DNA of 40,578 nt, from positions 1-40,578 of the forward strand of contig JBDRIF010000070.1 in assembly GCA_043816125.1 (NCBI GenBank). Direction: 5' to 3'. Both the position numbers and the translations under genes were made by a program. This document shows positions 1-28,135 of the stretch, piece after piece. Numbering within the stretch: the stretch's first letter is position 1; every line of letters begins with the position of its first letter. Source of the stretch: a bacterium. GTDB lineage: Bacteria > Margulisbacteria > WOR-1 > O2-12-FULL-45-9. The notes below the pieces were generated by a model. The model was not told the DNA's origin, searched no databases, and worked only from the letters and a program-made list of their open reading frames with translations.

Positions 1-314
1 TCAATCGGCAACCCGTGACAATCCCACCCGGGAATATACGGAGCTTTAAAGCCCTGCATACTTTTATATTTAACGATTATGTCTTTCAGCGTTTTGTTTA
101 AAGCATGACCGAGATGGATGTCCCCATTCGGATAAGGAGGACCATCGTGGAGGATATAAGTTCCTGAGTCGTGAGTTCGGTGTTCGGAGTTCTGTAATTG
201 ATGATAGATATCATTTTCGGCCCAAAAAGCAGAAAATTCTTCTTCCACTGCCTTCAGATTGGCGCGGATAGGGAAATCGGTCTGCGGCAGGTTTAAGGTT
301 TTTTTGTATTCCAT
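1..314 (-). CDS. ileS: Isoleucine--tRNA ligase (IleRS1), 5' part; runs off the window edge
   Basis: Not in the ORF track. Manual translation from ATG at 314 gives [20 protein letters not shown]...[26 protein letters not shown]...[10 protein letters not shown], with the HIGH-type HLGH and GWDCHGLP motifs. Confidence 0.97.
260..314. repeat. 55-bp direct repeat, copy 1 (functional ileS 5' end)
   Basis: tggcgcggatagggaaatcggtctgcggcaggtttaaggtttttttgtattccat matches 1531-1585 at 53/55 positions. Confidence 0.97.
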
Positions 315-321
315 TTTATCT

Positions 322-330
322 ATTTTATCA
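322..330 (-). promoter_or_regulatory. Putative extended -10 promoter for ileS (probably leaderless)
   Basis: TGATAAAAT lies 7 nt upstream of the ileS ATG, and no Shine-Dalgarno is present. Confidence 0.5.
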
Positions 331-373
331 CGAGAGAAGTGAAATTTCCGCTTTTTTCCTCAGAAATAGAATC

Positions 374-1522
374 ATGAGCAAGATACGCTTCCCTGTCCGC
401 ATGGGTGATATACAACAAGACGCTTTAACCAGGATCGGAGCTAAGGGCGTTTTACAAAGAAGAGATTTACAGCATCGCGCCTTTGGCCTGCTACCCGATC
501 AGGTAGGAAGAAAAGTCGGACTAGCAGGGCAACGGCAGACACTTCGAGCGTCAGATGATCCAACTCAAGCCAACGACTTACTCTCCCAACGAGGAACCTC
601 TGCTGATTGGCAAACTTTTGCTCTACCAGAACTAACCAGCTCAGCTCAAGCAAACCTCCTTCTGCTCTTTGGCCCTGATTTCGCCGGCAGGATCAAATCA
701 AAGAGAGGCTTGCCCACAGAGCTGCAGCGCTATCTTGACACATTAGCAAAAAATTGTCTCCCTATAGGCAGAACCACCCTGCAAAAAATACCTTCTACAT
801 TTGGAAGTGAGGCGGAAAGATATTTTTCTTCCGGCCAGTGGCTTATGGAACTAGCTAAATTTGTTTCAGCGGATGAGGCTAATTTGGCCAGCTTAGCACT
901 AATTCCCGATTTTACTCCCCTTCTCCCAACCTTAAGGAAAATACACGCGCTTCAGGCTATTTCTCAAACGGAACAAAGCCAACTTGCCAAGGCCTTGCTC
1001 TCTTTCTTGAGCAAACAGAATATTAATACAATCAGGAAACTATTTATGGGAACGTCTTCTTTTCCGTGTTTAATCAGATACCACGTAATTAAACAATGGT
1101 TGCAAGAAAAAATCGACTCAACAGATTCGACTTCTGAGGCAGAAAAAAATGCTTTGGAAAATACCGCCTTGTATTTGTCCAAATCAGCAAAAAATATTCA
1201 GAATGCTTTTCAGGTCATTCAACATCTTGAAGAACACTTCGGCCCGATCAAAAATGAACAAAATCCGGATATAAGAAAATCATGGCTCACCGCGGTCTAC
1301 GCTACTGCCATGCATGACAAAGCTGCGGCCCTCCTCGCCTCGATAAATTCCGTTAGCAAATTATTCCGGCCGCTCAATTCCGCGGATCCAGTTCAATTGA
1401 AAACCTGCTGGCTAAAAAAGCTTGTCACCACGGCCAGAAAATTCAAAACAAGTGAAACAGAAGAAATAGACGCGTACGTGGCAAAAAAGATTGTTCCGCT
1501 ATTAAAAGCATTAGCAGCTTAA
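374..1522 (+). CDS. Hypothetical orphan protein (382 aa) inside the ileS-repeat-flanked insert
   Basis: Long ORF filling almost the whole interval between the repeats, opposite in orientation to its neighbours. No motif I recognise. Confidence 0.75.
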   Translation: MSKIRFPVRMGDIQQDALTRIGAKGVLQRRDLQHRAFGLLPDQVGRKVGLAGQRQTLRASDDPTQANDLLSQRGTSADWQTFALPELTSSAQANLLLLFGPDFAGRIKSKRGLPTELQRYLDTLAKNCLPIGRTTLQKIPSTFGSEAERYFSSGQWLMELAKFVSADEANLASLALIPDFTPLLPTLRKIHALQAISQTEQSQLAKALLSFLSKQNINTIRKLFMGTSSFPCLIRYHVIKQWLQEKIDSTDSTSEAEKNALENTALYLSKSAKNIQNAFQVIQHLEEHFGPIKNEQNPDIRKSWLTAVYATAMHDKAAALLASINSVSKLFRPLNSADPVQLKTCWLKKLVTTARKFKTSETEEIDAYVAKKIVPLLKALAA

Positions 1523-1585
1523 CATTAAACTGGCGCGGATAGGAAAATCGGTTTGCGGCAGGTTTAAGGTTTTTTTGTATTCCAT
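1511..1585 (-). pseudogene. Truncated ileS 5' remnant (repeat copy 2 = 1531-1585)
   Basis: Reads [18 protein letters not shown] then SLMLSC-stop. Its ATG is 6 nt after the lemA stop codon. Confidence 0.85.
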
Positions 1586-1591
1586 CAACAA

Positions 1592-2149
1592 TTAAAACTT
1601 TACGTTCGGCGCCTCTTTGGCCTGTTCGTTGGCAATTTTGAAATAAGCTTTTTCCGAGTCAAAACCGATCAGCCTGACAAGAAAAACAGTCGGAATTGAA
1701 CGAGCTTTGGTATTATAAACCTGAACCAATTCGTTATAGCGCATTCTGGCGACAGAAAGTCTATTTTCTGTCCCTGCCAATTCATCCTGCAGGGCAATGA
1801 AATTGGTCGAAGCTTTCAATTGAGGATAATTCTCGGCAATTGCTAACAATCGACCCAAAACACTCTCCATCCCATTCGCCGCCTGCGCCTTGGCATTAAC
1901 AGAGTTAGCACCGGCCAGCTTGGTCCGAGCCTCAGCCACTGATTTAAAAATGTCCTCTTCATGTTTGGCATATCCTTTGACAGTAGAAACCAGATTCGGG
2001 ATCAGATCGTATCTTCTTTGCAATTGGTTCTCTACCTGGGCCCATCCTTGTTTAACCCCTTGGTCAAGACCAACCAAACCATTATAAGTAGAAACCAGCA
2101 TCAGAACCAAGACAACAATTATACCGACAATTACCCAGATATTTTTCAT
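1592..2149 (-). CDS. lemA: LemA family protein
   Basis: N-terminal TM helix, then YNGLV..W.QVENQLQRRYDLIPNLV, ENYPQLKA and LAGTENR..VAR.RYN. AGGAGG SD upstream. Confidence 0.95.
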   Translation of the reverse strand: MKNIWVIVGIIVVLVLMLVSTYNGLVGLDQGVKQGWAQVENQLQRRYDLIPNLVSTVKGYAKHEEDIFKSVAEARTKLAGANSVNAKAQAANGMESVLGRLLAIAENYPQLKASTNFIALQDELAGTENRLSVARMRYNELVQVYNTKARSIPTVFLVRLIGFDSEKAYFKIANEQAKEAPNVKF

Positions 2150-2204
2150 TTTATCCTCCTTTTTCCTATAGGCCTATGAGCCTAAAGGCCTATTATAACA
2201 CCTA

Positions 2205-2999
2205 TTAAAATCCCCGTCCTCCCCCTCCACCTCCGGATCTCCCCCCACCAAACCCGCCAAAGCCTCCTCCAGAACCTCCAAACGCCCCACCTCGCCCCCA
2301 AAACATAATACCCCAGAAACCAAAAAGACAACCGATCAACATCCCAACGATCGCCCCGGCCAAACCATTTTCACTCCCCCAAATCGCCCCCATTATCCCC
2401 ATCATGATCGAGCCGGGCTTTCTTAGAATTGCGCCAATAATTACCGCCGCAATAATAACATAAAAGAATAGCGGCCCGGCACTTTGCGGGGCAGGACTCG
2501 TTTGTTCGGGCAATTCTACTGTTTTGCCTGCCACAATCTCACTCAAAGCTCTGGCCGTATTAACCAATCCCTCGCCAAACTTTCCTTCTTTAAATAAAGG
2601 AACAGCATAAGCATCTAATATCCTTCCAGCTAAAGCATCAGGGACATCCCCTTCCAAACCATAACCGACCTCAATCTCCACCCTTCTCTCTTCCATGGCC
2701 AAGAGCAAAAGCAACCCGTTATCTTTCCCTTTTTGACCAATCCCCCATTTTTCAAACAATTTAACAGCATAAAGTTTGCTGTCCAAAGGCTCAACTGATT
2801 TAACAACCGCTACCGCTAATTCGGCGCCGGTTGATTTTTTAAGACCAAGAGAAATTTGTTCTAATTCCTGTTTTTGGGCTGGAGAAAGGATGCCGGCATA
2901 ATCATTAACATAGCCCTGATAGCCCGGCAGCTTATCTTCTGCAAAAGCAGAAAAAGAGATCAACAATAGGACCAATAAGATCAGGATTTTTTTGGGCAT
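2205..2999 (-). CDS. TPM domain (YgcG family) membrane protein
   Basis: Signal peptide, GYVNDYAGIL, WGIGQKGKDNGLLLL, EVGYGLEG and a Gly-rich tail GGFGGGRSGGGG. Adjacent to lemA, as is typical. Confidence 0.92.
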   Translation of the reverse strand: MPKKILILLVLLLISFSAFAEDKLPGYQGYVNDYAGILSPAQKQELEQISLGLKKSTGAELAVAVVKSVEPLDSKLYAVKLFEKWGIGQKGKDNGLLLLLAMEERRVEIEVGYGLEGDVPDALAGRILDAYAVPLFKEGKFGEGLVNTARALSEIVAGKTVELPEQTSPAPQSAGPLFFYVIIAAVIIGAILRKPGSIMMGIMGAIWGSENGLAGAIVGMLIGCLFGFWGIMFWGRGGAFGGSGGGFGGFGGGRSGGGGGGRGF

Positions 3000-3784
3000 T
3001 AACTTCTCCGCAGGTGCCGCAACGCCTTATGCGCTTCGGCTTCGCCGACTGCTATCATCTTTTGGGCCTTGTGGAGATCAAGGTGCCAGATATCTTCATC
3101 CAATAAGTGAGGTTCGATCAGAATATCGGCTTTCTTTCTTTGTTCAACAGCCAGCTTATGCATCACAATGTCCAATGAGCGGCCAAAAGCCTGAAAAGGG
3201 TCGTGAGGTAAATATTTAACGGGACAGGCAGGGACAACATCGGACGCAATCACAAAGTTTGCCCCCATTTTCCTGACCACATCGACCGGCACATTGTCGC
3301 TCAAGCCGCCATCGACGACAAATTTGCCCTGAATATCCTCGGGGGCAAAGACCCCGGGAAAGGCCGAACTGGCAGAGACAGCTTTTGCAACCCGCCCCTT
3401 TTTCATCACCACCTGCTGCCCGGTCTTGATATCTGTCCCGACCGTCGCAAAAGGCGTTTTAAGCTCGGAAAATTTCACATCTCCAATATACTTGATCAGT
3501 AAATCCTCAATTACTTCATTAGAAAGAAAACCGAGTTTAAAGAGGGAGAGTTTAAACATCCGCCCCCAACCGATACGCAAAGCAATTTGCTCAATTACGC
3601 TAATCTCTAAACCTGCAGCATAAGCGGCTCCGATCAATGAACCGGAAGAAGTTGCCGCAATATAATCGACCGGGATTTTATATTGCTCGATGACCTTAAG
3701 AACCCCAATATGAGCAATTCCACGGGCAATGCCGCCGCCGAGGACTAAACCGATCTTCTTTTTTCTAAATGGCAACCAGAACAT
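2999..3784 (-). CDS. Patatin-like phospholipase (RssA/NTE family)
   Basis: GGGIARGIAHIGV oxyanion motif, nucleophile elbow ATSSG (variant of GxSxG), SSAFPG and DGG motifs. Confidence 0.92.
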   Translation of the reverse strand: MFWLPFRKKKIGLVLGGGIARGIAHIGVLKVIEQYKIPVDYIAATSSGSLIGAAYAAGLEISVIEQIALRIGWGRMFKLSLFKLGFLSNEVIEDLLIKYIGDVKFSELKTPFATVGTDIKTGQQVVMKKGRVAKAVSASSAFPGVFAPEDIQGKFVVDGGLSDNVPVDVVRKMGANFVIASDVVPACPVKYLPHDPFQAFGRSLDIVMHKLAVEQRKKADILIEPHLLDEDIWHLDLHKAQKMIAVGEAEAHKALRHLRRS

Positions 3785-3826
3785 TTGCTTGATTTTAGCA
3801 CATTTTCTGCTACAATAAAATTTGCT
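3785..3826. promoter_or_regulatory. Overlapping divergent promoters for the patatin and EF-G2 genes
   Basis: Plus strand: TTGATT-16 nt-TACAAT with TG extension (3808-3816). Minus strand: TGCTAAAAT (3792-3800), 7 nt from the patatin ATG. Confidence 0.55.
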
Positions 3827-5860
3827 ATGAGGCAGTATCCTCCTGATAAGATCCGCAATATTGCGGTGATTGGATCGGGATCCACTGGCAAGACCTCACT
3901 CTGTGAAGCCTTAATTCTCAAATCTGGGGCAATTAATCGATCGGGTACTATTCAAGAAGGAAATACCGCCTCTGATTTTGACCCCGAAGAGATCAGACGA
4001 CAGATCAGCATCCACTCCACCCTCCTCCCAATCGAATGGAAAGACTGTAAAATTAATTTGATCGACACCCCCGGCTACATAGATTTTATCGGCGAACCGA
4101 TCTCGGCCATGCAGGTGGTCGACGGAGTAATTATTGTTGTCGATGCGGTAACTGGTGCCGGAGCCGGTTTAGATAATCTTTGGAAGTATATTGAAGAGCT
4201 CGACCTCCCTCATTGTATCGTTATCAATAAATGCGACCGTCCCCAAGCCGATTTTGACGGGGTGATGGAAAAACTACGCGAAAAATACAGCAAAGAAATT
4301 GTCCCTGTCCAGATCCCCAACGGCTTAGAAGATAAATACACCAATGTCTACAGCCTGCTCAAACATGATGCCCCGGCTGAGCTTAAAGACTCTTTTGATC
4401 TGCATAAGGAAATGCTGGTTGAGGGGATAGCGGAAATCGACGACACCATTCTCGAAGAATTTATGGAAGGAAAGGAAATCACAGAAACAGAACTAACCGA
4501 ACATCTGGTCACCGCCATTAACGCCGACAAGGTCTATCCGGTCTTTTGCACCTCGGCAACCAAAAATATCGGGATAGAGGAGATACTCAACTCGATTGTC
4601 GACTGGATGCCACCGGCTAACGAAAAAGAACACCCGGCCAAAAACAGCGCCGGTGAACAGATCCCGATCAAGGCAGATGGAAAAGAACCATTCTCCGCTT
4701 TTGTTTTTAGAAATATTACCGAGGCTCATGTCGGCACTCTCTCCTATATCCGAATCTATTCGGGAACGATTCTCCCCTCCTCCCCTGTTTATAATACCAA
4801 TAAGGGTAAAGACGAACGGGTCGGCCAGATCATTACTATGCGTGGCAAGACCAAAGTCGACCTCCCTTCTCTTTCGGCCGGTGATATCGCAGTTCTGCCC
4901 AAACTAAAAGTCACCGGGTTGGGAGATACTCTCTGTGACAAGAATCGAATCGTAAAATTTGCCCAGGTTAAATTCCCCGAACCGGCGATGTCTTTTTCGG
5001 TCAAACCCAAGAGCAAAGCCGATCAGGAAAAAATGGCCTTGGGGCTGGGGAGTTTTACCCATGAAGATAAGACCTTTCAGATGAGTTACAACGCCGAGAC
5101 CAAAGAGACAGTTATCTCCGGCATGGGAGATGTCCATCTGGAAATAATTCTCACCAAGATCAAAGAGCGCTATGGGATAGAGATTGAGATCGGCGCCCCC
5201 AGGGTTCCATATAAAGAGACTATACGCGGCAAGACGAAAGCTCAGGGGAAATACAAAAAGCAGACCGGCGGTCGTGGTCAGTATGGTGACTGCTGGATCG
5301 AGATTGAACCGCTCCCCGAAGGAAAAGGCTTTGAATTCGTTAATAAAATCGTCGGCGGAGCTATCCCCAAAAATTACATCCCCTCGATCGAAAAGGGGAT
5401 AAAAGAATGCATGGCCGGCGGGGTTATTGCCGGCTATCCGGTTGTCGACGTTAAAGTAACTGTAATTGACGGCTCATATCATGAAGTCGACTCTTCCGAC
5501 ATGGCCTTTCAAATCGCCGGATCTCTGGGCTTTAAAAAGGCTGTTCAAGATGCCAGCCCGACTATGATGGAGCCGATCGTTGTAATAACAGTTAAGGCCC
5601 CTCCCGAATTTATCGGCCAGGTGACCGGCGACCTTAATAAACGGCGGGGTAGAATTTCAACCATCGAAACAGATAAAGTGATCGCCCAGGTCCCGCTGGG
5701 GGAAATTTCAAAATATGCCACCAACCTGCGTTCTTTTACTCACGGGCAAGGTTCATTCAGCACCAAGTTTTCACATTACGAACAAGTGCCGCCACCAACT
5801 CAGGCAAAATTGGTCGAAATGTATCAAAAAATAAGAGAAGCAGGAGGTGTTAAACAATGA
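3827..5860 (+). CDS. Elongation factor G paralogue (EF-G2/FusA2 type)
   Basis: Full EF-G architecture with divergent G motifs GSGSTGKT, RQISI, DTPGY and NKCD, plus [11 protein letters not shown] and SYHEVDSS. The ATG at 3827 is preferred over the track's TTG at 3785. Confidence 0.92.
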   Translation: MRQYPPDKIRNIAVIGSGSTGKTSLCEALILKSGAINRSGTIQEGNTASDFDPEEIRRQISIHSTLLPIEWKDCKINLIDTPGYIDFIGEPISAMQVVDGVIIVVDAVTGAGAGLDNLWKYIEELDLPHCIVINKCDRPQADFDGVMEKLREKYSKEIVPVQIPNGLEDKYTNVYSLLKHDAPAELKDSFDLHKEMLVEGIAEIDDTILEEFMEGKEITETELTEHLVTAINADKVYPVFCTSATKNIGIEEILNSIVDWMPPANEKEHPAKNSAGEQIPIKADGKEPFSAFVFRNITEAHVGTLSYIRIYSGTILPSSPVYNTNKGKDERVGQIITMRGKTKVDLPSLSAGDIAVLPKLKVTGLGDTLCDKNRIVKFAQVKFPEPAMSFSVKPKSKADQEKMALGLGSFTHEDKTFQMSYNAETKETVISGMGDVHLEIILTKIKERYGIEIEIGAPRVPYKETIRGKTKAQGKYKKQTGGRGQYGDCWIEIEPLPEGKGFEFVNKIVGGAIPKNYIPSIEKGIKECMAGGVIAGYPVVDVKVTVIDGSYHEVDSSDMAFQIAGSLGFKKAVQDASPTMMEPIVVITVKAPPEFIGQVTGDLNKRRGRISTIETDKVIAQVPLGEISKYATNLRSFTHGQGSFSTKFSHYEQVPPPTQAKLVEMYQKIREAGGVKQ

Positions 5861-6057
5861 GTTTAGTAAACGACTGTTCAGTGATCAAAGAAGTTCCAAC
5901 CCTGATCAACCTCGCCTCATCCGAAGACAGACACCATTTAGATGACCTCGGTCTCCAGATCGCGGCCAAAGAACATCTGCATTATGAAGGGTATATTGCT
6001 GTTACCGATACGCCCTATTCTGTGGAACACGCGAAGACAACGTTGTTTTTTGATTAA
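5857..6057 (+). CDS. Small hypothetical protein (66 aa)
   Basis: Strong GGAGGT SD, ATGA overlap with the EF-G2 stop, and it ends just before the hairpin pair. Confidence 0.7.
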   Translation: MSLVNDCSVIKEVPTLINLASSEDRHHLDDLGLQIAAKEHLHYEGYIAVTDTPYSVEHAKTTLFFD

Positions 6058-26035: not shown

Positions 26036-28135
26036 TTACTTTTTCGCTCCTGTTTCTGCGGGGCTCTTAAGCTTTTCGATTAAGTCCTGAGATAAGTTTT
26101 TCGGCAGTTCGTTGTATTCGCAAAACTCCATCGTGTAGTTGCCGCGCCCCTGACTCAAAGAACGTAACACTGTAGCATAACCGAACATACTTGCCAAGGG
26201 AACTTTTGCTTTTATCGTCTGTATTCCTTGATGAGATTCCATCCCTTCGATCCGTCCCCGTCGAGAATTGAGATCGCCGATAACTTCACCCATGTAATTT
26301 TCGGGCACCACAACTTCTACCTGCATCACCGGCTCCAGGAGAATCGGCTTGCTTTTTAAGGCGGCACTTTTGAAAGCCATCGAAGCGGCAATCTTAAAAG
26401 CGATTTCTGATGAATCGACTTCGTGATATGAACCATCGAAAACAGTTGCCTTAACATCTATCACTTCGTAACCGGCCAAAACTCCACTGGTTAAAGTTTC
26501 TTTAATTCCTTTTTCAATCGCCGGAATATATTCGCGGGGAATAGAGCCCCCAACGACTTCATTAACAAACTCAAATCCTTTACCGGTTTCCAGCGGTTCC
26601 AGCCTTAATAAAACGTGGCCATACTGACCACGACCACCGGTCTGGCGAATAAATTTTGATTCGGCTTCGGCTTTACCGCGGATAGTCTCTTTGTAGGCAA
26701 CCTGCGGTTTGCCGACATTGGCATCAACCTTAAATTCGCGCATCAGACGATCGACAATAATTTCCAAATGGAGTTCTCCCATGCCGGAAATAATTGTTTG
26801 ACCAGTTTCAGGATCGCCCTTAACCTTGAAAGTAGGATCTTCTTCGGCCAATTTTGACAAAGCGATCCCGAGTTTTTCTTGGTCAGCCTTGGTCTTCGGC
26901 TCGATTGCCACAAAAATAACCGGCTCAGGAAACTGGATCGACTCGAGAATGACAGGTTTGTCTTCGTCACACAAAGTATCGCCGGTAGTCGTATTCTTGA
27001 ATCCGACCGCAGCGGCAATATCTCCGGCTGTAACCTCATCGATTTCTTCCCGTTTATTGGAGTGCATTTGCAGAATACGACCGATCCGTTCTCTTTTTTG
27101 CTTTACAGAGTTAAAGACATAAGAACCGGCTTTTAAAACCCCGGAATATACCCTAAAGAAAGTTAACTTACCAACATAAGGATCGGTCATAATCTTAAAG
27201 GCTAAAGCGGAGAATGGCTCGTCATCTTCGGTCCGACGATTCTCTTCTGCGCCGGTCTTGGGATTGGTCCCAGCCACCGAAGCGACATCGAGAGGGGATG
27301 GGAGATAATCGACGATTGCATCCAACATCGGTTGGACACCTTTATTCTTAAAAGAGGACCCGCAGATTATCGGAATAATTTGCGCTGCAACGACCGCTTT
27401 ACGAAGACCGGCCATAATTTCTTCTTTTGTTAATTTATTTCCTGCCAGATATTTTTCCAGCAGTTTGTCGTCGGCTTCAGCGGCCGCTTCGACTAGTTTT
27501 TCATGATATTCTGTTGCCTTAGCTTTTAAATTTTCCGGGATCGGTTGGCGTTCAAATTTCATCCCCATCTCATCCTGATAAATGATTGCATCCATCTCCA
27601 CTAAATCGACAATGCCGATAAAATCTCCTTCTGCTCCGATTGGCAGCTGAAAAGGGATCCCCTTGGCCAGCAGACGATCATTGACTTGTTCGACAACGCG
27701 ATAAAAGTTGGCCCCGGTCCGATCCATTTTATTGATATAACAGATTCGTGGAACCTTGTAACGGGTCGCCTGTCGCCAGACTGTTTCGGACTGTGGCTGT
27801 ACGCCGCCGACGGCACAAAAAACAACCACAACACCGTCGAGAACGCGCATGCTTCGTTCAACCTCGACAGTAAAATCAACGTGCCCTGGAGTATCAATAA
27901 TATTAATTCGATGGTCACGCCAAAATGTGGTGGTAGCAGCAGAAGTAATTGTGATACCACGCTCTCTCTCTTGCTCCATCCAATCCATTGTGGTGGTTCC
28001 ATCGTGAACTTCGCCAATTTTGTGCAACACACCACTGTAGAACAATACCCGTTCAGTGGTCGTTGTTTTGCCCGCATCGATGTGTGCGGCAAAACCCATA
28101 TTACGATATTTATCTATTGCATACTTTCTAGCCAT
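26036..28135 (-). CDS. fusA: Elongation factor G (canonical)
   Basis: [22 protein letters not shown] and NKMD; follows rpsG. Confidence 0.99.

Follow-up and report, generated by a model that had tools for sequence, protein, structure and literature searches.

A promoter-less 55-nt stub of ileS beside a foreign gene in a Margulisiibacteriota genome as a possible scar of integrase-free recombination

Anatomy of the ileS tip repeat

The window analyzed here is the whole of contig C70 (GenBank JBDRIF010000070.1; 40,578 nt) of a metagenome-assembled genome of the Margulisiibacteriota (G000, assembly GCA_043816125.1; 1.41 Mb, 162 contigs, 90% complete) from an uncultured groundwater bacterium. Close to the start of the window, two direct copies of the 5' tip of the essential gene ileS flank a single gene for a 382-aa protein; one copy opens the working ileS, and the other lies as a stub behind lemA (Table 1). 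Tentatively, we read this stub as the scar of an integrase-free, homology-anchored illegitimate recombination between two versions of one variable gene slot, derived from closely related populations.

We found the two copies in two comparisons that agree, 55 nt long with two mismatches (window 273 G/1544 A and 282 C/1553 T) and a longest exact block of 32 nt, whereas none of 100 shuffles gave two matches. Both copies open at an ATG on the minus strand, and both mismatches are synonymous (CAG/CAA at Gln11 and TTC/TTT at Phe14), as an earlier note on this DNA had reported from the letters alone. Its account of the second copy, which begins 6 nt past the lemA stop and dies after 24 codons, is likewise borne out by translation. 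The first copy had been described as the intact ileS, which is correct for the 104 codons present on the contig (314->3; tRNA-synt_1, PF00133, E 4e-27); this frame is 63–80% identical to ileS of 39 relatives in a sample of the phylum but is truncated by the contig end, and the remainder of ileS is absent from the bin.

The copies enclose 1216 bp (315–1530), which consist of a 59-nt spacer, one ORF of 382 aa and 8 nt, and homology between insert and target extends no further than the repeat itself. The insert holds no recombinase, as had been stated; its single ORF is without a Pfam or PHROG match. A transposon is not indicated, since there are no inverted repeats at the insert ends and no transposase domain by Pfam, and repeat lengths across the genome vary from 36 to 180 nt rather than being fixed. 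The 8 nt past the ORF stop would leave no room for an integron attC site.

The working copy carries an extended −10 element, TGATAAAAT, at 330–322(−), 7 nt before the ATG. In an alignment of the 70-nt upstream regions of ileS from 29 relatives in two families of the order, we found TGnTAAAAT 6–30 nt upstream of the gene in 24 of them, mostly at 6–14 nt; with one relative (G005) the window shares 18 identical bases, ttctcgTGATAAAATAGA, at the ileS promoter. Hence, copy 1 does have its own extended −10, but the claim that the insertion supplied a new promoter does not stand, since this is the native ileS promoter of the order, and copy 1 plus its upstream 30 nt is one contiguous native promoter–ileS unit. 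Across the two families, ileS is without a Shine-Dalgarno sequence, and because the extended −10 lies so close to the ATG (6–14 nt), the ileS mRNA is probably leaderless or near-leaderless in this order. A promoter and terminator scan, which is blind to extended −10 promoters without a −35 box, gave nothing above shuffles, and Rfam and tRNA scans of window 1–4000 and 1–6000 found no RNA element.

Of all frames, only that of the 382-aa ORF has a positive codon score, which ranks at the 8th percentile among ORFs of the host, and the GC content of the ORF resembles that of the host. It has no Pfam match (only a sub-threshold GLTSCR1 hit) and no PHROG match, and in a word-based search of 5.8 billion clusters the protein matched only itself. 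By an exhaustive HMMER search we found four remote relatives (E 6e-18 to 2e-8), all outside the phylum and none with a Pfam family or a name. One of them (P0005) aligns to residues 4–380 at 26% identity, and the other three carry multiple repeats of FGxIK...(R/K)KQWLIAVY.VAMKGK; the motif of the family is FGxIK...KQWLIAVY. A five-member profile found no member in the other 145 phylum genomes (1 of 146, the host itself). The label of orphan therefore holds within the phylum and fails beyond it, and the ORF is a real gene that is foreign to the phylum. The protein may be all-alpha, at low confidence, as a poor single-sequence AlphaFold model (pLDDT 40) consists entirely of helices. By no test run (Pfam, PHROG) is it a recombinase. 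A likeness to type III secretion gatekeepers (Atlas feature score 0.87, 150 shared features) was below the bar of the tool, with a structural TM of at most 0.31, and we treat it as no evidence.

As a side observation, the family of P0002–P0005 counts five members among 1.84 billion representatives, has tandem repeats of ~40 residues with KQWLIAVY.VAMKGK, and shows hydrophobic N-termini in three members; P0003 and P0004 have the same longest-contig value on record, 97.5 kb.

It is very improbable that the stub or its junction is an assembly artefact that occurs in no cell. Such an error could be suspected because the feature sits only 260–1585 nt from the contig end, because a second, ~90% identical population seems to be present in the bin, and because no run reads over the junction. 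Pieces of the window are present in public groundwater metagenomes, but the four runs (each with at most 0.20 of the sampled words) gave 2x fragments only over window 1–3200, leaving 536–1498 and the joint at 1522–1531 uncovered, and are too sparse to show a circle or an empty site. However, an independent low-depth contig from run X1 spans 255–527 (the first tip, the promoter and the ORF start) with 3 differences, and a second low-depth read contig covers lemA from 1597 to 1885 with 0 differences. Moreover, the contigs of this assembly share terminal overlaps of exactly 141 nt, which we take to reflect an assembly k of 141; as this is far longer than the 55-nt repeat, it argues against a repeat-induced misjoin. 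The joint also has no shared sequence to mislead a de Bruijn graph, and many analogous stubs with unique junctions lie on other contigs. A row from run X3 that links 1585 to 319 matches at 85% likeness, and we took it as the ileS tip of another organism. The second population, partly binned within G000, is suggested by stretches of 1.1–3 kb that are 89–90% identical between contigs C111 and C31 and between C122 and C78.

Table 1. Features of the ileS locus in the window and repeat-flanked sites elsewhere in G000; the ten further stub sites given by contig position include those of the gene-end stubs listed by name.
Feature	Position	Strand	Basis or remark
ileS, first 104 codons	3..314	-	ORF, PF00133; exits contig start
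Repeat copy 1, codons 1-18 (+1 nt) of working ileS	260..314	-	repeat comparison
Divergent spacer, 59 nt, ileS vs 382-aa ORF	315..373	.	sequence
Extended -10 TGATAAAAT	322..330	-	7 nt upstream of ileS ATG; motif shared with relatives
382-aa ORF, putatively all-alpha ('orphan')	374..1522	+	codon score, HMMER relatives
8 nt from ORF stop to stub, with putative illegitimate joint (1530/1531 boundary)	1523..1530	.	sequence
Dead 24-codon frame opened by stub	1511..1585	-	translation
Repeat copy 2, promoter-less stub of ileS codons 1-18	1531..1585	-	repeat comparison
lemA; stop 6 nt before stub ATG	1592..2149	-	PF04011, E 2.5e-57
TPM-domain gene; ATG overlaps patatin stop (ATGA)	2205..2999	-	PF04536
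Patatin-like gene; conserved upstream border of variable slot	2999..3784	-	PF01734
EF-G-like GTPase, divergent from patatin; conserved synteny anchor in family	3785..5860	+	synteny
rsmD start / recG end stub			cargo: PIN gene and 75-aa partner
ilvN 3' end stub			cargo: AAA_14+DUF4143 ATPase
priA 3' end stub			cargo: AAA_14+DUF4143 ATPase
ilvD 3' end stub			cargo: nucleotidyltransferase pair
guaA 3' end stub			cargo: 705-aa ORF
Classic island, 55-nt tRNA 3'-end repeats around 5.1 kb	C137:994-6250 (L077)		PF00589 tyrosine integrase at one end
Further stub site	C43:20025-20801		
Further stub site	C50:8856-10160		
Further stub site	C50:3806-4938		
Further stub site	C77:3083-4398		
Further stub site	C22:1441-3693		
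Further stub site	C156:647-1680		
Further stub site	C97:5303-6316		
Further stub site	C17:1388-6478		
Further stub site	C118:554-5023		
Further stub site	C8:14012-14716		

The patatin–ileS slot and a second stub in the order

With no same-genus genome at hand for G000, our family comparisons cross genera. In 8 of 14 family genomes ileS is preceded on its own strand by the patatin gene, and the interval between the two genes ranges from an overlap to ~2.3 kb and holds unrelated cargo. The two genes overlap in G006 and are 8 nt apart in G001 and 113 nt apart in G007; gaps of ~0.4–0.9 kb in G013, G004, G005 and G012 hold unrelated ORFs (on the opposite strand in the last three; no Pfam family in the two tested), and the 2.3-kb gap of G010 holds an H+-pyrophosphatase (H+-PPase) gene. 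In G000 the slot measures 2.7 kb and is occupied by the TPM gene, lemA, the stub and the 382-aa ORF. It is flanked by potential homologous anchors, namely ileS (63–80% identical) on one side and the patatin and EF-G-like genes on the other. The window contig also carries a second EF-G-like gene, at 26036–28135(−), that is ~42% identical to its paralogue at the slot, 3785–5860(+).

Orthologues of lemA (69–76% identical) occur in seven family genomes, where the pair TPM->lemA is conserved. Since this pair lies elsewhere than ileS in all seven, and since ileS is within 3 kb of lemA in none of 80 lemA loci across bacteria, TPM–lemA is itself a newcomer displaced into the patatin–ileS slot. The earlier note had proposed lemA–ileS as the ancestral order, an adjacency that is absent from the relatives searched. 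The proposal is nonetheless plausible: in G006 and G001, ileS sits tight behind patatin without a promoter (stop 0–8 nt from start), which shows that a promoter-less ileS is viable in the family and makes a former junction of lemA, 6 nt and ileS credible.

These comparisons also bear on a rearrangement within a single genome, in which TPM–lemA would have moved in between the patatin gene and the ORF, with the ileS start serving as template for 55 nt of filler (through template switching in break repair or through break-induced replication), and a lemA–ileS allele would never have existed. Consistent with this, TPM–lemA lies elsewhere in every relative with an orthologue, and once TPM, lemA and the stub are subtracted, the layout is patatin, opposite-strand ORF and promoter–ileS, as in G004, G005 and G012; the template is just 1.2 kb off, and the illegitimate joints needed are no more than in other models. 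However, the filler would have to begin exactly at the ATG, in the direction of lemA and 6 nt past its stop, and would mimic the tight junctions of G001 and G006 by chance. In addition, the ATGA overlap between patatin and TPM resembles an established operon, the mostly synonymous differences of stubs across the genome (see below) misfit copies made in place, and Ku was not found in the 90%-complete bin. Hence, we consider a rearrangement in one genome quite unlikely.

We searched 146 phylum genomes for ileS tips and found a match in 134. A short dead second tip is present in two of the 134, G000 and G021, with no integrase among the ORFs listed for either. G021 belongs to another family of the same order, and its stub lies ~2 kb upstream of ileS (locus L052, G021:C1:785100-793900). 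The locus starts with a histidine kinase gene, a 319-aa gene (opposite strand), and a promoter with 25 ileS codons; this ileS tip continues in frame into a duplicate of the kinase's last 24 codons, after which come a 204-aa gene, a 68-aa gene (opposite strand) and promoter–ileS. In the sister G022 and five other family genomes, kinase->ileS is the native order. We found the fusion joint of G021 at a 5–6-nt microhomology, GTCGA(A), and the differences between the two kinase ends almost only at third codon positions. The two ileS tips share identical blocks of at most 10 nt, which excludes a crossover within the tip. The G021 arrangement is the product expected when a single illegitimate joint links two diverged forms of the interval, each with its own cargo, and its stub is independent of that in G000. 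Three genes without a Pfam family are distributed across both halves of the G021 locus.

Two other genomes gave a second match to the ileS tip. The double match of G053 is not a stub but comes from two 73–75% identical syntenic regions on separate contigs (L177 and L178 on C4 and C5; >4 kb, both with ileS), which may reflect either a bin of mixed origin or an old duplication of large size. The second match of G111 touches a contig end.

Repeat-flanked genes elsewhere in the genome

A scan of G000 for similar repeat-flanked ORFs found further cases. Its self-comparison gave 43 intra-contig repeat pairs, of which 16 were viewed in one round and 21 in another. Many of the pairs are direct repeats of 36–180 nt, 88–100% identical, around one or two genes, with one copy being the end of a housekeeping gene, and there is no common sequence among them. 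Beside the PIN, nucleotidyltransferase and ATPase genes, the inserts include several ORFs that belong to no family.

The twin of the ileS case is at serS (C45:16574-18004; L068:1575-3005), where a 93-nt direct repeat (91% identical) contains the native promoter (TTGACC...TGTATACT) and the first 14 serS codons. Between the copies lies a single 390-aa ORF that belongs to no family; it runs on the opposite strand and its stop directly adjoins the dead copy (0 nt), as in the geometry of the ileS case; a terminator-like hairpin lies upstream of the dead copy. The serS promoter is also found in the relatives G003, G004 and G001, and the serS leader in G000 is 10 nt. Between the two copies, 1 of 44 coding positions differs, compared with 6 mismatches and 1 gap in ~50 promoter positions.

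Across eight stub pairs of G000 we counted 30 synonymous and 8 non-synonymous codon differences, to which the window pair contributes 2 of 2 synonymous. The synonymous share expected is 0.27 under random change (p = 2e-11) and 0.42 under decay in place (p = 4e-6). Since the differences are mostly synonymous, the stub copies appear to have diverged as working genes, i.e. in two lineages.

Some of the cargo recurs. The AAA_14+DUF4143 ATPase genes at C50:8873-10018 and C77:3138-4292 are 29% identical and each lies at a different pair of convergent genes, yet in a like arrangement: the intact target 3' end, then the ATPase gene on the opposite strand, then 60–100 nt, then the stub. This ATPase family may travel in a regular way. 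The cargo ORFs of ~380 aa are not one recombinase family, as two of them are these ATPases and the rest are dissimilar (best E 0.002–7).

Stubs of gene ends are also what a site-specific integrative element would leave, and the insert could be a remnant or satellite of such an element with the ileS 5' tip as attachment site, in which promoter and tip restore the gene and the integrase is lost or acts in trans. Direct repeats that duplicate a conserved housekeeping-gene end are the hallmark of these elements, and copy 1 opens ileS accordingly; other stubs of G000 are at the 3' ends of guaA, priA, ilvN and ilvD, and divergence that is synonymous only fits a gene end borne by an element. Like gene-end genomic islands (at tRNA genes and the guaA 3' end), the repeats duplicate the gene end and the gene is restored, and the same genome has a classic example with a tyrosine integrase on contig C137. 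Unlike these islands, the ileS case has no integrase, a single-gene cargo and a 5'-end target, and the stubs have no common core. A single ORF that matches neither Pfam nor PHROG takes up the insert, which holds no integrase or remnant of one and has no inverted terminal repeats. We found three tyrosine recombinases (PF00589) and one serine recombinase (PF00239) in G000, all off the window contig, against >10 unrelated repeat pairs. Next to ileS, no integrase is among the ORFs listed in the 1.5-kb flanks of 29 relatives and in 16 wider loci, not all of which were Pfam-tested. Finally, the G021 stub is joined to a kinase end at a microhomology, with no common core. An integrative element is thus an improbable source of the ileS stub.

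Possible recombination between two versions of the slot

Our preferred reading, illegitimate recombination anchored by homology between two slot versions, would run as follows. Version 1 would have been patatin–TPM–lemA followed directly by ileS without its own promoter, and version 2 the foreign 382-aa gene head to head with the native promoter–ileS unit. A fragment of one version would pair with the other through a long conserved stretch, either ileS or, in the mirror case, patatin and upstream. The non-homologous end would then be joined illegitimately, ileS codon 18 to a point 8 nt past the stop of the 382-aa gene. The product would hold the cargo of both versions, one working promoter–ileS unit and a dead 18-codon stub. 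We infer the two parental versions, the donor side, the uptake of DNA and the mechanism of the joint at the window; the scheme builds on what the sequences show, namely the anatomy of the locus, a promoter that is native, a slot of variable content, a foreign ORF, the microhomology case of G021 and the two-lineage pattern of stubs across the genome. RecA, DprA and ComEC are present in G000, which is permissive only, since most control genomes have them too.

Several points weigh against this reading, which we hold to be possible rather than probable. Neither parental version is seen among the relatives available, lemA adjoins ileS in none of the seven orthologous family loci and none of the 80 wider loci, and a degenerate pattern for ileS codons 24–38 found 0 metagenome contigs. 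The joint of the window has no parental sequence to compare it with, so that microhomology is seen only in G021, and only 8 nt separate the ORF stop from the joint (0 nt at serS), which is tidier than random illegitimate joints predict. The eight pairs of the codon count were hand-picked from 43, and in C8 and C156 both copies lie in ORFs; without these two the count is 12 synonymous to 3 non-synonymous. The window pair alone, at 2 of 2, is not significant (~0.18 under decay in place). Furthermore, in E. coli conjugation, single-crossover duplications outnumber true homology-facilitated illegitimate recombination (HFIR) in 56 of 60 clones (PMC3240628), and this favours a circle as sub-mechanism.

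The main rival is therefore a Campbell-type single crossover, in which a 1271-bp circle (ORF, promoter and 55-nt tip) recombined by host RecA with the tip in a lemA–ileS chromosome and could be excised again through the repeats; one-genome rearrangement, a decayed element and an artefact are less likely. Homology of 55 nt with a 32-nt perfect block is near the minimum for RecA-dependent exchange. In favour of the crossover, the repeat is the only homology between insert and target and ends at the ATG, where the upstream sequences diverge, and the insert boundaries are tidy at both ileS and serS. Duplications of 109–950 bp from deleted circular molecules were the main outcome in the E. coli clones above (PMC3240628). 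As in the Campbell-type insertion-duplication of that source, the insert lies between direct repeats of the shared segment, with the gene intact on one side; unlike those experiments, the shared segment here is 55 nt, and no circle, plasmid or vector origin is evident. Moreover, forming the circle itself needs an illegitimate joint, plus transfer, and G021, with its blocks of at most 10 identical bases, would be left unexplained. Hence, a single crossover is unlikely, though it is the rival to be taken most seriously.

A bolder scheme is that the housekeeping-gene-end stubs are homology arms that make cassettes of one or two genes (unknown ORFs, toxin-antitoxin-like pairs, DUF4143 ATPases) self-perpetuating, integrase-free mobile units in the Margulisiibacteriota. 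RecA would excise circles, which would re-enter related genomes at the same gene end, bringing a promoter or an end for an essential gene. We think this doubtful; if true, the ileS and serS 5'-tip cassettes would be the first to target the starts of aminoacyl-tRNA synthetase genes.

What the earlier note observed is confirmed in all details, and its interpretation is upheld in part. It had raised the possibility of an undescribed mode of gene capture. We do not uphold this claim, since both insertion-duplication by single crossover and HFIR are documented (PMC3240628 and PMC5361080). The HFIR model (PMC5361080) combines one homologous anchor with an illegitimate joint and is thought to leave orphaned gene pieces in T6SS, Rhs and CDI arrays. 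The ileS locus is like this model in having one conserved anchor, one putative illegitimate joint, added foreign cargo, a displaced piece of a resident gene and no integrase (PMC5361080), and G021 has the microhomology expected. It is unlike the model in that the stub derives from the 5' tip of a housekeeping gene that is both essential and single-copy, rather than from the 3' end of a toxin gene, and in that recipient DNA is duplicated rather than deleted.

The slot itself resembles the minimal mobile elements of Neisseria. In such elements, reportedly defined by Saunders & Snyder in 2002, exchange runs cleanly through the two flanks, with no stub left behind. Like them (PMC1797815), the patatin–ileS slot has a conserved gene on either side, differs between genomes in the whole-gene cassettes inside it, has no mobility genes and would rely on host recombination. 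Unlike them, the window has a 55-nt stub, and our comparison is between genera rather than strains. Taken together, the locus is best read as a recombination scar in a slot like that of a minimal mobile element, and not as a new capture mode or a new kind of mobile element.

As a single locus, the stub would be an ordinary scar, yet also a readable record of gene gain without mobile-element machinery in an uncultured bacterium with a small genome. On this reading, the 5' end of an essential gene can be rebuilt in such an event, and the stub keeps the trace of a lemA–ileS operon arrangement that is found in no sequenced relative. The part worth following is the genome-wide two-lineage set, with at least 10 stubs in 1.4 Mb (at the ends of ileS, serS, rsmD/recG, ilvN, ilvD, priA and guaA). 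These suggest that the phylum regularly gains genes through recombination with related populations in which one end is joined sloppily, and the stubs could then help to count such events, and to date them, in metagenome-assembled genomes.

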